This document shows positions 1 to 3,747 of a DNA stretch of 3,747 nt, one piece after another (within the stretch, counting starts at the first letter, position 1; each line of letters begins with the position of its first letter). The notes beneath the pieces were generated by a model that ran no database searches, had not been told where the DNA came from, and saw only the letters and a program-made list of their open reading frames with translations. The DNA comes from Escherichia coli (GTDB taxonomy: Bacteria > Pseudomonadota > Gammaproteobacteria > Enterobacterales > Enterobacteriaceae), in assembly GCF_003334255.1 (NCBI RefSeq), contig NZ_QOWU01000116.1; one strand, 5' to 3'. A program made the position numbers and the translations under genes.

Positions 1-134
1 GTGAAGACAGCGACCTCCGTCTGGCCGGTTCGGATTCGTACCTCGCAGAGGTCTTTCCTCGTTACCAGTGCCGTCACTATGACGGTTAAACAGATGACGA
101 TCAGGGCGATTAACATCGCCTTTTGCTGCTTCAT
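1..134 (-). CDS. hokD: Hok-family type I membrane toxin HokD/RelF, 3'-truncated by the window edge (first 44 codons present)
   Basis: Minus-strand ATG at 134-132 with AGGAG 9 nt upstream (complement of 144-148). My manual translation is MKQQKAMLIALIVICLTVIVTALVTRKDLCEVRIRTGQTEVAVF, which I recognise as the Hok/Gef-family toxin encoded downstream of relE in E. coli. It is below the size cutoff of the ORF track and runs off the window at position 1. Confidence 0.85.
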   Translation of the reverse strand, partial: MKQQKAMLIALIVICLTVIVTALVTRKDLCEVRIRTGQTEVAVF

Positions 135-205
135 AGCCTGCTTCTCCTGTCAACGCAAAGCAGAAGTGTCACCTTCGGTGCGAAACAGAGATGTCATGCT
201 TTGGT

Positions 206-493
206 TCAGAGAATGCGTTTGACCGCCTCGCTATATACTTCCGAGCGTTCTCTTTTCCCAACAGAAATCACGAAAACGACAACTTTCTCGTCTATAACCT
301 GGTATACAAGGCGATAGCCTGAAGACCGGAGCTTAATCTTGTAACAATCAGGCATACCACGGAGCTTGTTTGCTTCAATCCGGGGTGACTCAAGTACTTC
401 AACCAGCTTCTTTTTCAACTGTTCACGTACCGTCGAGCCCAGCTTTCGCCATTCCTTTAGTGCCCGCTCGTCAAAATCCAGAAAATACGCCAT
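206..493 (-). CDS. relE: RelE type II toxin (ribosome-dependent mRNA endonuclease)
   Basis: 95-aa ORF MAYFLDFDERALKEWRKLGSTVREQLKKKL...VISVGKRERSEVYSEAVKRIL, recognised from memory as E. coli RelE. Its ATG (493-491) overlaps the relB stop codon by 1 nt (TGATG on the minus strand), the canonical coupled arrangement. Confidence 0.96.
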   Translation of the reverse strand: MAYFLDFDERALKEWRKLGSTVREQLKKKLVEVLESPRIEANKLRGMPDCYKIKLRSSGYRLVYQVIDEKVVVFVISVGKRERSEVYSEAVKRIL

Positions 494-732
494 CAGAGTT
501 CATCCAGCGTCACACGTACTGGCTTAGGATTACGAAGCCGTTCTTTCACTATCTCCACAAGTTCAGCATCTTCATCACTCAGGAGTGTCTGTTTGAACGG
601 CAAGCGTTCATTGTCAGCGATATACTCGAGCATGAGACGAAGCGCTTCAGAAGGAGTTACACCCATTTTTTCAAGCGCGGCGTAAGAACGCGCTTTAAGT
701 TCATCGTCAATACGCAGGTTAATGCTACCCAT
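493..732 (-). CDS. relB: RelB type II antitoxin (ribbon-helix-helix autorepressor)
   Basis: 79-aa ORF MGSINLRIDDELKARSYAALEKMGVTPSEALRLMLEYIADNERLPFKQTLLSDEDAELVEIVKERLRNPKPVRVTLDEL, recognised as RelB. GAGGTG Shine-Dalgarno sits 6 nt upstream of the ATG (complement of 739-744). The gene lies immediately upstream of relE in the same orientation. Confidence 0.96.
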   Translation of the reverse strand: MGSINLRIDDELKARSYAALEKMGVTPSEALRLMLEYIADNERLPFKQTLLSDEDAELVEIVKERLRNPKPVRVTLDEL

Positions 733-742
733 GTCTTACACC

Positions 743-796
743 TCTTGTAATTACAAATGTCATTACAAGTATCGCACTACAACATGCTTAGGGCAA
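743..796 (-). promoter_or_regulatory. relBE promoter with relO operator
   Basis: Minus strand reads TTGCCC (791-796) - 17 nt - GATACT (768-773), followed by CTTGTAATGACATTTGTAATTACAAG, which holds two TTGTAAT repeats and a perfect 12-bp palindrome TTGTAATTACAA (745-756). This matches the known RelB/RelB-RelE autoregulatory operator architecture. Exact -35/-10 assignment is by eye. Confidence 0.7.
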
Positions 797-1062
797 GTCA
801 CGAAGGAAGTCAGAAAGTAGTCGTAAGAACGGTGATCACTGTCCGCTTTGTGCCAGGAGCAGCCATTGCTAAGTCCATCCTGTATTGTGCAGGTCAGCTC
901 GTTTTTAAAGAGTCCGGCCATCATCTTACTGGTACAGACACCATATACTTTGTGACGGTCAGGCTACATATGCACAACTCAACTTATTCATCTATTTTTT
1001 GCTTTAGCATGTCAGTGTTGCTTTCTCGTCGGCGGGTGAGCGGTGACCTGACCTGTCGATAA
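757..1062 (+). CDS. ydfV: Hypothetical 101-aa ORF divergent from relB; position and length correspond to the annotated E. coli prophage ORF ydfV; coding status doubtful
   Basis: It is the only ORF of 60 aa or more in the relB-flxA gap that does not overlap a confident gene. Its ATG lies inside the relO operator, it has no Shine-Dalgarno, and the product is S/T/V/R-rich with no motif I recognise. The symbol is assigned from synteny (hokD-relE-relB-ydfV-flxA) and length as I recall them, not from sequence identity. Confidence 0.3.
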   Translation: MSLQVSHYNMLRASHEGSQKVVVRTVITVRFVPGAAIAKSILYCAGQLVFKESGHHLTGTDTIYFVTVRLHMHNSTYSSIFCFSMSVLLSRRRVSGDLTCR

Positions 1063-1214
1063 AGGAACGTAACACGTTTTATGCAACACCCGCATGCGGC
1101 AGAAAATTATTGCCGAACGTTTACCCCTGTCAACAAGCTTTACTTTCTGAGGCGCGCCAGCCCGCGAGGAAAACAATCTGAACATCAAACAATTAATGAC
1201 ACAAGAAATACGAT

Positions 1215-1241
1215 TAAAGATTTTTTTGTGCATGCCGATAG
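1215..1241 (+). promoter_or_regulatory. Sigma-28 (FliA) class 3 flagellar promoter driving flxA
   Basis: TAAAGATT (1215-1222) - 11 nt - GCCGATAG (1234-1241) against the consensus TAAAGTTT-N11-GCCGATAA, a 7/8 match in each element. It sits 24 nt upstream of the flxA start codon. Confidence 0.8.
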
Positions 1242-1264
1242 TGCTTTTTTAAAAGGAGAAATCT

Positions 1265-1597
1265 ATGTCTGTCACAATTCAGGGAAATACCTCAACCGTT
1301 ATTTCAAACAACTCCGCCCCGGAAGGAACATCAGAAATAGCCAAAATCACAAGACAAATTCAGGTGCTGACTGAAAAGCTTGGGAAAATCTCATCGGAAG
1401 AGGGGATGACGACACAGCAGAAAAAAGAAATGGCTGCATTGGTACAGAAGCAAATTGAAAGCCTCTGGGCTCAACTGGAGCAGTTGTTAAGGCAGCAGGC
1501 AGAGAAAAAGAATGAAGACGCGACAGTTCAGCCTGATAAAAAAGAAGAGAAAAAAGACGATACAAATACCGCTGGCACCATTGATATTTACGTCTAA
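1265..1597 (+). CDS. flxA: FlxA, FliA-regulated protein (small hydrophilic, coiled-coil-like, K/E/Q-rich)
   Basis: 110-aa ORF with AAGGAG (1253-1258) 6 nt upstream of the ATG, a sigma-28 promoter directly upstream and an intrinsic terminator directly downstream. The product MSVTIQGNTSTVISNNSAPEGTSEIAKITRQIQVLTEKL... is recognised as FlxA of the E. coli Qin prophage. Confidence 0.9.
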   Translation: MSVTIQGNTSTVISNNSAPEGTSEIAKITRQIQVLTEKLGKISSEEGMTTQQKKEMAALVQKQIESLWAQLEQLLRQQAEKKNEDATVQPDKKEEKKDDTNTAGTIDIYV

Positions 1598-1611
1598 GTG
1601 ACAGCCGTATT

Positions 1612-1634
1612 GTGGCCCTCATCGGGCCACTTTT
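1612..1634 (+). terminator. Rho-independent terminator of flxA
   Basis: GTGGCCC (1612-1618) - TCATC loop - GGGCCAC (1624-1630) followed by TTTT (1631-1634), starting 15 nt after the flxA stop codon. Confidence 0.75.
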
Positions 1635-2033
1635 CGCCATCAGCCTTTTCTTTAAAGACATATTATCTTTGTATCATTTCTGATAGTTAACATTACAAGA
1701 TATAAGTAATGGACGCACTCCCAATTAGTCTATTTAAATCGCCACGAGTTTAACTGACAACCCATGATCAATTATGAATTGCAACTATTTCTGTAGTCAC
1801 TTTTGTGGGGACAGTCCACAAAACTGCCAACTTCCGCTTCTTGCTCTTAGCGGACATTAGCATAGGCTATTTACCATAACGCCTCATTACGCGCACCGCC
1901 CAGACTGACTCAGCGCGTTTCTGGCATATCCCCGGTAAAACAAGTAACAAACCACCCGAAAATGAACACCAGAAACGCGACTTAAGAATCTACCCTATGA
2001 ATGGATATGCACTCAACCGAATCGATCTTGGTT

Positions 2034-3347
2034 TCAATCTTTTTTATCGGGATCAGGCTTCTTTTTAGGTAACTTCGGGGGCTTAACTTGCTGATGACTT
2101 TGCGTTCGGCGCGTAAGCCAGGGATGGTCAGCTTTAGGTTTAACATAGTATTTTGAGCGTAAATCAATACGGGCATTATCCACTCGTTCATGGACACTCT
2201 TTTCATCATCCAGTGGTATAGGCTCCGGGCCATCAACATACTTTTCCCAGCCCAGCGCTTTCCCGTCATACAGAACGTTAATTTCACCGTCAAAGTTCTC
2301 GCATACAGTAACAACCGAATGCCTAAGTCGATATCCCCGGCCCTCACTGCGTACCTGAAACGCACTGCTTTTGTACTGGAAAGTGAGATTTTTAGACAGA
2401 ACGCGCTTCGCCTGTAGGCTGAAGATATAACCCAGTTCCTCTTCAGAATGGTGCACATCAAGATGAGCATTATCAGTAGTACGAGGCGACGTAGCGAACC
2501 GGTTGTTATAGGCTTCAATAAAGGTCGGCAACCATGCATTTGCTGTTTCAATATCACTGATATTCTGAAGCCGCATTTCTTTGACCAGCCTGTCCTGTAG
2601 TGTCTGATTGGCGCGCTCTACCCGCCCTTTTGCCTGCGGGCTGTTGGCATGGATTGGCTCGATGCCCAGTGTCTTTATCGCACGAGTGAACTGGGTCAGC
2701 TCACCTTCCCGCTCTGGGTTATTTACCCTGAATATACTGTGTCTATCAGAGTAGAGAGCGAGCGATACGCCATGATCATTAAGGTAACCCCGGAGGGTTT
2801 CCATGTAAGCCCGGGTTGTTTCAGCAGGCACAAAACGCAACGCCATCAACGCACTGGTGGCATCATCAATGAAAACGATCAGTGTACATCTGGGGCCTCG
2901 ATTTTCAAACCAGTCATGAGGTGAGCCATCAATCTGGATCAGTTCACCGTAAGATGGTCGTCGCATGCGGCGTTGATATATACGGGCAATTTTACGACGG
3001 CGTTCACGCCATAACCCCTCTTCTATCATCCACTTTCTGAGAGTTTCAACGGATAAAGATAAACCGTGTATCTCGCGCAATTTTTCGCACGCAAACGTAG
3101 GTCCAAAATCAGCGTAACGGCCTTTGAGGAGTGAAATTACTGTTGCTCTGAATTCAGTAGAAAAGGAATTATTAGGACGCTTTCCACGTCGGTGGGAAAC
3201 CAGACCAGAAGGCCCTTCATTTCTATACCGTTGCACCAGACGTTTAACCTGCCGAATAGAAATGCCAATGCGTGCCGCAGCTTGTTCCTGAATAATCTGA
3301 AGTCGGTGGAGTTCCTTATGACTCATCGTAACAGTCTCTTTGATCAT
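2034..3347 (-). CDS. DDE transposase with N-terminal helix-turn-helix and integrase-core (rve-like) catalytic domain; IS481/ISNCY(IS1202-group)-like
   Basis: 437-aa ORF. The N-terminus (ELHRLQIIQEQAAARIGISIRQVKRLVQRYR) looks like a helix-turn-helix. Candidate catalytic triad in typical rve context and spacing: D in LIQIDGSPHDW, D in LALYSDRHSIF, E in AKGRVERANQTLQD. The C-terminus is basic and proline-rich (KPPKLPKKKPDPDKKD). GGGGGA Shine-Dalgarno sits 6 nt upstream of the ATG. Family placement is by motif recall, not alignment. Confidence 0.9.
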   Translation of the reverse strand: MIKETVTMSHKELHRLQIIQEQAAARIGISIRQVKRLVQRYRNEGPSGLVSHRRGKRPNNSFSTEFRATVISLLKGRYADFGPTFACEKLREIHGLSLSVETLRKWMIEEGLWRERRRKIARIYQRRMRRPSYGELIQIDGSPHDWFENRGPRCTLIVFIDDATSALMALRFVPAETTRAYMETLRGYLNDHGVSLALYSDRHSIFRVNNPEREGELTQFTRAIKTLGIEPIHANSPQAKGRVERANQTLQDRLVKEMRLQNISDIETANAWLPTFIEAYNNRFATSPRTTDNAHLDVHHSEEELGYIFSLQAKRVLSKNLTFQYKSSAFQVRSEGRGYRLRHSVVTVCENFDGEINVLYDGKALGWEKYVDGPEPIPLDDEKSVHERVDNARIDLRSKYYVKPKADHPWLTRRTQSHQQVKPPKLPKKKPDPDKKD

Positions 3348-3355
3348 GAAAAATC

Positions 3356-3375
3356 CCCCAGAGAATTGTCTGGGG
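3356..3375 (-). promoter_or_regulatory. Stem-loop in the transposase 5' leader that would sequester the Shine-Dalgarno
   Basis: The minus-strand RNA would read CCCCAGA-CAAUUC-UCUGGGG, 7-bp arms with a 6-nt loop. The 3' arm overlaps 4 of the 6 nt of the GGGGGA Shine-Dalgarno (3354-3359), which lies 6 nt before the ATG at 3347. Confidence 0.4.
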
Positions 3376-3524
3376 ACATTTTAGAATGGTTCAAAGGGGA
3401 CATTACAGCTTGGTGTTAACAATAGCCTGCTTCTCCGTGCCTTTCGGCACGTAAGAGGCTAACCTACATGTGTCTAGCATGAAATTGGCCTCAGATTAAT
3501 GTTAAGCGTCTTGCAGGACGCGTA

Positions 3525-3707
3525 ATGTTAACTGGGGCTTTTCTCTATCTGCCGTTGGTGTCCATGCCCGAGGCAGATAGCCTCAAGCACCCGCAGTCAT
3601 TCTACTTAACTAAGATTTCCCCGCAAACCGTTTTTGTCCAGCACAGTAAATATCCAACTAAACCAATGGAGTTCGCTGTATTTACCGCCAGTATTCAATG
3701 CACATGA
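3525..3707 (+). CDS. Hypothetical 60-aa protein, unknown function
   Basis: ORF with AGGA (3515-3518) 6 nt upstream of the ATG. Its TGA stop (3705-3707) overlaps the ATG (3704-3706) of a following in-frame-shifted ORF, the ATGA arrangement typical of translationally coupled genes. I do not recognise the product. Confidence 0.3.
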   Translation: MLTGAFLYLPLVSMPEADSLKHPQSFYLTKISPQTVFVQHSKYPTKPMEFAVFTASIQCT

Positions 3708-3747
3708 CCGCCATGAACACCCCTAAAAAAAGGGCATTTATATATCC
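3704..3747 (+). CDS. 5' end of a hypothetical ORF continuing beyond the window (MTAMNTPKKRAFIY...)
   Basis: ATG at 3704 overlaps the stop of the preceding ORF, with a second in-frame ATG at 3713. The reading frame is open to the window edge. Only 14 codons are visible, so the call rests on the coupling geometry alone. Confidence 0.25.
   Translation, partial: MTAMNTPKKRAFIY

Follow-up and report, generated by a model that had tools for sequence, protein, structure and literature searches.

We analysed a 3,747-bp stretch of Escherichia coli DNA (RefSeq contig NZ_QOWU01000116.1; hereafter the window), which contains an open reading frame (ORF), here called tnp, downstream of flxA. Taken together with its surroundings, this ORF very probably encodes the transposase of an ISEsa1-lineage transposon, a cargo-carrying element of 3,274 bp within the IS1202 family of insertion sequences (IS), that occupies window positions 148-3421 and is inserted in the hokD locus. 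From left to right, the element consists of a terminal repeat, relE, relB, the cargo genes ydfV and flxA, a cer-like Xer site, tnp and the second terminal repeat. The tnp ORF alone is ordinary, being a known and annotated transposase; it is the context that matters. The gene, the element ends and the flanking target sequences are located as follows.

1-134, minus strand: 5′ part of the hokD coding sequence (ATG at 134-132), the window beginning within the gene; assigned from the RefSeq annotation of 100% identical genomes and joined to its leader in empty-site strains
133-147, no strand: left copy of the target site duplication, 15 bp, ATAGCCTGCTTCTCC; exact repeat of 3422-3436, present as a single copy in L009 and L010
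148-173, plus strand: relE-proximal terminal inverted repeat, TGTCAACGCAAAGCAGAAGTGTCACC; 19/26 match to the other end
180-196, plus strand: subterminal repeat of the inner terminal repeat, a putative second transposase-binding site; 13/17 match
2034-3347, minus strand: tnp, ISEsa1-type IS1202-family DDE transposase, 437 aa; assigned by ORF scan, hidden Markov model (HMM), homologue alignment and structural model
3372-3390, minus strand: subterminal repeat of the inner tnp-proximal terminal repeat; 15/19 match, 79% in the repeat scan
3396-3421, minus strand: tnp-proximal terminal inverted repeat, TGTTAACACCAAGCTGTAATGTCCCC on the minus strand; pairs with 148-173
3422-3436, no strand: right copy of the 15-bp target site duplication; exact repeat of 133-147
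3422-3747, minus strand: orphaned hok/sok leader (mok/sok region), severed from the hokD coding sequence; assigned by the Rfam sok model and by identity to the leader of strain LR-45

The extent of the insertion was read from the Qin-like prophages of two E. coli strains, LR-45 and 219, in which the site is empty. In these strains, window positions 1-148 adjoin positions 3422-3747 and share one copy of the 15-mer, hokD is joined to its hok/sok leader, and relBE, ydfV, flxA and tnp are all absent from the site. Positions 3422-3747 of the window are 98.5% identical to the hokD-contiguous leader of LR-45, and positions 3421-3592 matched the full length of the Rfam model for sok (RF01794) with 104 bits. 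The leader signature that is contiguous with hokD in the empty-site strains is thus separated from it in the window by the element. Since the empty site holds a single 15-mer, positions 148-3421 represent a discrete 3,274-bp insertion that splits the leader from the hokD coding sequence. On the hok strand, ATAGCCTGCTTCTCC comprises the Shine-Dalgarno sequence and the AT of the hokD ATG. An earlier note on this DNA had suspected a break in synteny downstream of flxA. This break is real and larger than claimed, as the whole of 148-3421, with relBE, ydfV and flxA included, is inserted relative to Qin-like prophages with an intact hokD.

Elements of the IS1202 family have imperfect terminal repeats of 22-29 bp with the form 5′-TGT…ACA-3′, and a subterminal copy of the inner terminal repeat has been described for them (PMC10132070). 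Indeed, the imperfect repeats at 148-173 and 3396-3421 are of the TGT…ACA type, and internal copies are present at both ends. The two 26-bp repeats match at 19 positions, a value that was reached by 0 of 200,000 random window pairs. Furthermore, an end identical to 148-173 bounds five other elements (L005, L007, L016, L017 and L021), a near-identical end bounds a 1448-bp IS of Salmonella, and homology to every other copy ends exactly at window position 3421.

Conceivably, tnp could be part of an ordinary 1.6-kb ISEsa1 (~1829/1840-3421) located downstream of flxA, with relBE, ydfV and flxA being native Qin genes. This idea is supported by Harmer and Hall (2023), who list ISEsa1 with 1609 bp and 15/22 terminal repeats and give neither a target duplication nor a detectable target preference for it (PMC10132070), and by the homology to many plasmid copies, which begins at 1829. 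However, no inverted repeat matching at 14/22 or better is spaced so as to fit a length of 1609 bp, and an inverted-repeat search for the 1609-bp ends in the window, L006 and L008 gave no more than 13-15/22, at no sensible spacing. Likewise, no target duplication was present at the 1829 boundary, and the published analysis gives none either. Moreover, tnp is not alone in being absent from the empty site, where relBE, ydfV and flxA are missing too. The copies that seem to start at 1829 carry other cargo and terminate in the same relE-proximal repeat, next to a matching duplication. An ordinary 1.6-kb ISEsa1 is, in our judgement, very unlikely. As the full element has its distal end beyond relE and is flanked by 15-bp duplications, the 1609-bp ISEsa1 of ISfinder appears to be mis-delimited. 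The label ISEsa1 is used here according to the RefSeq names, given by the Prokaryotic Genome Annotation Pipeline (PGAP), of ~98% identical plasmid copies, and not according to the ISfinder reference sequence.

Additional evidence for a mobile element came from copies at other sites, for which the replicon, element size, cargo and duplication are given below.

L005: Enterobacter IncF plasmid; 3,307 bp; cargo as in the window; perfect 15-bp duplication, ATGGCCTTCTTCTCC
L007: Salmonella IncI plasmid; 3,301 bp; cargo as in the window; perfect 15-bp duplication, ATCATAGCCCCTCCA
L016: Phytobacter plasmid; 12,843 bp; ncr and chr metal-resistance genes; perfect 15-bp duplication, ATAGCTGACTTCTCC
L021: Citrobacter plasmid, transposase 79% identical; 10,210 bp; parE-type pair and other IS; perfect 15-bp duplication
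L032: Kosakonia contig, between liv- and ugpB-like genes; 9,922 bp; ars operon; imperfect duplication, match of at least 12 bp

Perfect 15-bp duplications thus flank five complete elements (those of the window, L005, L007, L016 and L021), and also the short Salmonella IS. Elements with the same ends range from 3.3 to 12.8 kb and reside on plasmids as well as chromosomes. At the window locus and at L005, L007, L016, L021 and L032, the duplication covers the Shine-Dalgarno sequence and the start codon of a hok-family gene, and in all hok insertions the tnp-proximal end faces the hok leader, so that a single orientation is used. When flanks from Kluyvera, Pseudocitrobacter and Klebsiella are counted, 8 sequence-distinct hok loci were struck at the same position within 1-3 nt. 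An exact-pattern scan for the tnp-proximal end, performed on a collection with one genome per species, returned 5 loci.

The short Salmonella IS (L024; Salmonella enterica CP019410.1, 8927-10374) is a cargo-free element of 1,448 bp with 75% identity and both types of terminal repeat, and is regarded here as the ancestral short form of the element. Its target is a type I toxin gene of the Ldr family that neighbours bcsG; the 15-bp duplication, CAAGGCGGCTATATG, is made up of the Shine-Dalgarno sequence and the ATG of this toxin gene. More distant relatives in Hahella (L027 and L028; ~60% identity) are 1,449-bp IS with TGT terminal repeats of their own and with 16-bp duplications at two sites. 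Given the 15-bp duplications of the enterobacterial elements and the 16-bp duplications in Hahella, the subgroup makes duplications of 15-16 bp. The relatives in Hahella and Thiorhodospira sibirica (60% identity) are multicopy IS of ~1.45 kb. In the T. sibirica copies L029 and L030 the flanks are swapped, which suggests a rearrangement between IS copies.

These duplications also bear on the idea that the block from relBE to tnp moves by homologous recombination in the hok flanks, as a cassette exchange in which the 15-bp repeats merely reflect hok paralogy. The block is indeed bracketed by hok-family sequence, and hok paralogues are similar enough to recombine. However, the 15-bp repeats differ between loci, are identical on both sides of each element and match the local hok variant. 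Recombination would be expected to leave one fixed junction, and the differing yet paired duplications therefore rule out a spread by this route. In addition, the block is bounded by TGT…ACA inverted repeats that are accompanied by subterminal repeats, these ends recur together with a 15-bp duplication at the ldr site, which is not a hok locus, and the 60%-identical Hahella relative has its own TGT repeats and 16-bp duplications at unrelated sites. We accordingly attach little probability to a cassette exchange, and favour transposition of the whole element.

The tnp ORF consists of 437 uninterrupted codons on the minus strand, with an ATG at 3347 and a stop codon at 2034-2036, and is convergent with flxA (1265-1597, plus strand). 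It is far beyond chance. The NCBIfam model NF033594 ('ISNCY family transposase') matched it with 452 bits (cut-off 250; E 1.6e-135; profile positions 7-365 of 368), while Pfam identified the helix-turn-helix (HTH) domains HTH_32, HTH_29, HTH_28 and HTH_23 at residues 20-107 and rve_3 at residues 229-282. The residues D140, D201 and E244, which form the DDE triad, and also Q251 are invariant across 74 aligned sequences (the window ORF and 73 homologues). The HTH plus rve-like DDE transposase proposed in the earlier note was therefore borne out by the Pfam HTH domains, by the DDE triad and by rve_3, the integrase-core domain that the profile search was to reveal, with NF033594 placing the family. 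Q251 is located seven residues past the catalytic E244, where neither K nor R is found, and Q at E+7 is given as a signature of the IS1202 family (Harmer and Hall 2023, PMC10132070). Both the score above the HMM cut-off and the combination of DDE with Q place the transposase in this family, and the plasmid copies that RefSeq names 'IS1202-like element ISEsa1 family transposase' are proteins of 446 aa.

A structural model was calculated with AlphaFold2. An alignment of 12 sequences gave an unusable model with a predicted local distance difference test (pLDDT) score of 53, and the model was redone with the 74-sequence alignment, resulting in a pLDDT of 76 and a predicted template modelling (pTM) score of 0.66. 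This model displays HTH regions, an RNaseH fold and a beta-barrel. Its best structural matches in Foldseek were TnsB of a type V-K CRISPR-associated transposon (CAST; 8rdu_R, E 5e-14), IstA (8b4h), MuA (4fcy) and TnsB of Tn7 (7pik), and the tnp product is thus predicted to have a TnsB/MuA/IstA-like fold. A sequence search of the PDB with the transposase gave a marginal match to the HTH of TnsB (E 0.005), the structural similarity coming from the fold search. The earlier note had pointed to a basic, proline-rich C-terminal tail that it could not assign to a family. A lysine/proline-rich stretch is indeed present at residues 411-437, but it is no unassignable add-on, since the C-terminal region is invariant in the family up to W410 and contains the motifs PLDDEKS and KPxxDHPW. 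Beyond this point, the last ~27 residues differ among the homologues in both sequence and length and were modelled with low confidence, and the tail is best viewed as a native extension, probably disordered, rather than a foreign addition.

The possibility that the ORF is a degenerate prophage integrase remnant ('intK') without any mobile-element role was also considered. The Pfam domain rve_3 carries the name 'integrase core domain', and an older K-12 annotation reportedly called the tnp fragment an integrase ('intK'). However, the Pfam scan of the ORF, which returned HTH and rve_3 domains only, revealed no Phage_integrase (tyrosine-recombinase) domain, and the ORF passed NF033594, an equivalog-level transposase model. 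Furthermore, the product has a DDE triad and a TnsB/IstA/MuA-like fold, and the gene is part of an element that has terminal repeats and is flanked by a target duplication. We regard an integrase remnant as next to impossible, and the integrase label mentioned in the earlier note had to be dropped for this gene, which is not of the phage tyrosine-recombinase type.

Compared with the 446-aa plasmid ISEsa1 transposase, tnp of the window lacks 27 bp (9 codons) between positions 3285 and 3286. The deletion is in frame and removes 9 residues between I19 and Q20, inside the first HTH, which are present in 73/73 aligned homologues. Because the near-repeat TCCTGA(G/A)TAAT borders the deleted 27-bp segment, slippage is suggested as its origin. 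Among E. coli records with the tnp region, ~543 carried the deletion allele and ~255 the canonical form. One strain (L004) holds the same Qin insertion without the deletion, in an element of 3,301 bp, and the 27-bp deletion therefore postdates the insertion. The 437-aa allele of the window is probably defective in end binding and would hence be immobile unless complemented. The transposase, which the earlier note had called intact, is so in the sense that the ORF is open and the catalytic residues are kept, but with 9 residues of the first HTH gone it is not canonical.

The whole window is 100% identical to the region of the cryptic prophage Qin in many E. coli chromosomes, and 757 of 5,426 complete E. 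coli genomes contain at least 80% of it. MG1655 matches window positions 1-2218 at 100% identity (hokD, relE, relB, ydfV, flxA and ydfW) and then jumps 4,799 bp further into Qin. Since the alignment jumps in this way, K-12 is taken to carry a 4.8-kb deletion with its breakpoint at 2218/2219, by which, on the same alignment, it lost the tnp-proximal 1.2 kb of the element and 3.6 kb of prophage after the insertion. What is left of tnp in K-12 is its last 185 nt, annotated as ydfW. The 49-aa YdfW protein (ydfW, window 2034-2183) corresponds to transposase residues 389-437, with an internal GTG start. YdfX, by contrast, represents the first 93 residues of a 173-aa YdaT-family protein (100% identity), and a direct comparison of YdfX with the transposase showed no similarity. 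The earlier idea that the short K-12 fragments derive from this gene thus applies to YdfW and not to YdfX, which is unrelated. The orphaned hok/sok leader is still located beside the element in the window, and K-12 lost it in the 4.8-kb deletion. By these comparisons, insertion in a Qin-like prophage yields the gene order relB-relE-hokD(relF) of K-12. Pedersen and Gerdes reportedly stated in 1999 that hokD of K-12 is without its mok/sok leader through a 'major rearrangement', which the window reveals to be the insertion of a transposon.

Two observations concern database records of this region. In 100% identical genomes (L001 and L003), RefSeq/PGAP splits the ORF into 'protein YdfW' (2034-2183) and an 'ISNCY family transposase' pseudogene 'missing C-terminus' (2304-3326), which appears to be an artefact caused by carry-over of the K-12 name ydfW. 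In addition, a 5.5-kb contig (L013; JAIJJM010000167.1, 'MAG: Collinsella sp.') shares 99.9% identity with the E. coli Qin region seen in the window, and most likely reflects E. coli contamination or mis-binning in that metagenome-assembled genome (MAG).

Inside the element, conserved modules and a variable segment could be distinguished.

206-493, minus strand: relE, 95 aa; TIGR02385, RefSeq WP_000323025.1
493-732, minus strand: relB, 79 aa; NF008412, 133 bits
861-1828, no strand: variable cargo segment, which holds ydfV (757-1062, plus strand) and flxA (1265-1597, plus strand); replaced in other elements
1869-1962, minus strand: cer-like Xer site, with XerD half-site 1869-1879 (ATTTACCATAA), spacer 1880-1886 and XerC half-site 1887-1897 (TTACGCGCACC), followed by accessory-type sequence
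3355-3376, minus strand: hairpin, the stem of which holds the GGGGG Shine-Dalgarno sequence of tnp; consensus of the terminator/hairpin scan

The modules conserved across variants are relE-relB (148-860) and tnp (1829-3421), while the segment between them is variable and has the same junctions in four variants. Between ~860 and ~1829, the elements of L016, L017, L018 and the window carry as cargo ydfV-flxA, ncrABCY with chrBA, an hsdR fragment, and BCCT transporter/chaperonin genes; the ars operon is the cargo of L032. Window positions 1869-1962 are 69% identical to ColE1 cer (NC_001371 3938-3844; E 1e-5), with an identical XerD half-site, a spacer of 7 bp and ~65 bp of accessory-type sequence, likewise homologous to ColE1 cer, adjoining the cer-like core. 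Positions 1869-1979 are 75-80% identical to small ColE1-type plasmids, which are included in a list of 3,572 plasmid records with matches to 1640-1990, and this homology ends at ~1979. The site is located between the cargo and the 3′ end of tnp, inside the element. Within the same region, positions 1866-1899 form a 34-bp exact match to the 4.3-kb plasmid NZ_CP091701.1.

Three ideas on this region were considered. Xer-mediated cargo exchange at the cer core is unsupported as stated, as the junction is ~35 bp off on the XerD side and not in the spacer. Positions 1829-1870 were tried as a diverged relic of a hok-leader target and gave a local alignment score of 12, no better than the mean for shuffled sequence (12.2 ± 2.1), so that this idea was rejected. 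A relic inner end at 1908-1933 matched at 14/26 positions by hand count; it is situated inside the sequence homologous to ColE1 cer and was treated as a chance match. As to expression signals, the hairpin at 3355-3376, with a stem of 8 bp (TCCCCAGA…TCTGGGGG), overlaps the subterminal repeat and stops 7 nt short of the tnp ATG. It may lower the translation of tnp from transcripts that originate at the hok promoter and read through into the element. The ydfV-flxA spacer contains a near-consensus sigma-70 promoter-like site (1106-1133, minus strand; TTGACA-16 nt-AATAAT, 11/12) that is directed away from flxA; in total, promoter-like sites were no more numerous in the window than in shuffled sequence.

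These findings can be accommodated in the following mechanism. A lone TnsB/MuA-like DDE transposase would bind the terminal and subterminal repeats at each end, and would promote cut or copy transposition with target cuts that are staggered by 15 bp. In the enterobacterial lineage it would prefer the translation-start region of type I toxin genes (the hok family, and ldr once) and insert with a constant orientation and spacing, downstream of a short conserved palindrome preceding the Shine-Dalgarno sequence, namely TGCC-N4-GGCA in hok and TGCCATTGCA in ldr. The palindrome ends 0-1 nt before the duplicated segment. Within 148-3421, which encodes only relE, relB, ydfV, flxA and tnp, we found none of the Tn7-like partners TnsA, TnsC, TnsD, MuB or IstB. 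As no target-selection partner is encoded in the element, the choice of target would be a property of the transposase itself or of a host factor. The broadest form of this proposal, to which we give about even chances, is that ISEsa1-lineage cargo transposons specifically hunt the ribosome-binding site/start codon region of type I toxin genes (hok and ldr), uncouple the toxin from its leader/antisense control and bring a type II addiction module of the relBE or parE type; that relBE-hokD of K-12 is the scar of such an event; that the cargo (nickel, chromate and arsenic resistance genes, among others) is swapped at fixed junctions close by a cer-like site; and that a lone TnsB-like transposase reads the palindrome.

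Several points weigh against these readings. The flanks at L011, L012 and L017 are not hok-like, the Hahella relatives of ~60% identity insert at unrelated sites, and ldr is represented as a target by a single site. In view of the non-hok flanks and the unrelated Hahella sites, targeting is the preference of one lineage and not an absolute rule; by the flanks compared here, it is in the enterobacterial lineage that toxin start sites are preferred. Since IncF and IncI plasmids often contain hok loci in their leading regions, the apparent preference could also be inflated by selection or sampling bias, and the role of the palindrome is our own reading of nine flanks. Complete E. coli genomes show one site, with a median of one tnp-region match per positive genome, which fits a single old prophage-borne insertion. 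The evidence for transposition is in its entirety comparative sequence. Lastly, the apparent mis-delimitation of ISfinder's 1609-bp ISEsa1 is deduced from the copies compared here.

When compared with ISEsa1 as known, which is placed in the IS1202 group of the ISNCY category in ISfinder, the element has in common the tnp module (1829-3421; 97.5-98.6% DNA identity to plasmid copies), the DDE triad with Q at E+7, the TGT…ACA ends and the subterminal repeats. In contrast to the ISEsa1 entry, with its 1609 bp and no duplication, the element described here measures 3.3-12.8 kb, reaches past relE and is flanked by 15-bp duplications. It also differs in carrying relBE, a cer-like site and variable cargo and in its preference for hok start regions, and the window allele differs in being without 9 HTH residues. 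IS1202-family elements of the ISAjo2 type, the 'dif site hunters', resemble it in having a single-protein, TnsB-like transposase and in inserting in one orientation at a fixed distance from a short conserved site. However, they insert 5 bp from the XerC side of pdif/dif, make 3-5-bp duplications and have no cargo, whereas the present element targets the Shine-Dalgarno/ATG region of type I toxin genes with a 15-bp duplication and has its Xer-type site inside the element, not at the target. TnsB of Tn7 and CAST, MuA of Mu and IstA of IS21 provide the best structural matches and share TGT ends and multiple end-binding sites, which are putative here; unlike those systems, the present element is without TnsA, TnsC, TnsD, MuB and IstB, and its sequence similarity to TnsB is marginal (E 0.005). 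Finally, window positions 1-2218 are identical to the 'relBEF' operon/hokD (relF) region of K-12 MG1655, but the window keeps the leader and the full transposase gene, both of which are deleted in K-12. In the searchable literature, we found no description of the extent of the element, the 15-bp duplication, the relBE/variable cargo, the toxin-start preference, or this explanation of relBE-hokD and ydfW in K-12. The transposase and the IS name are already known; the element extent, duplication, cargo and target preference are new to that literature, and the duplication and target preference run counter to what has been published for ISEsa1.

Together, these findings imply that relBE of K-12, the paradigm of a type II toxin-antitoxin system, is a passenger of a transposon, as are ydfV and flxA, and that the leaderless hokD (relF) of K-12 is explained by a transposon insertion. 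They would also correct the boundaries of ISEsa1 and the reported absence of a target duplication, and they expose a recurring RefSeq artefact, namely the division of one continuous ORF between 'ydfW' and a 'pseudogene missing its C-terminus'. For the IS1202 family, until now known only for dif-site hunting, the preference for toxin start sites would represent a further mode of targeted insertion, and it makes site choice by a TnsB-like transposase without an AAA+ partner testable. For the enterobacteria, the elements described here would make up a family of transposons that carry, as cargo, genes for metal resistance and stability from plasmid to plasmid.

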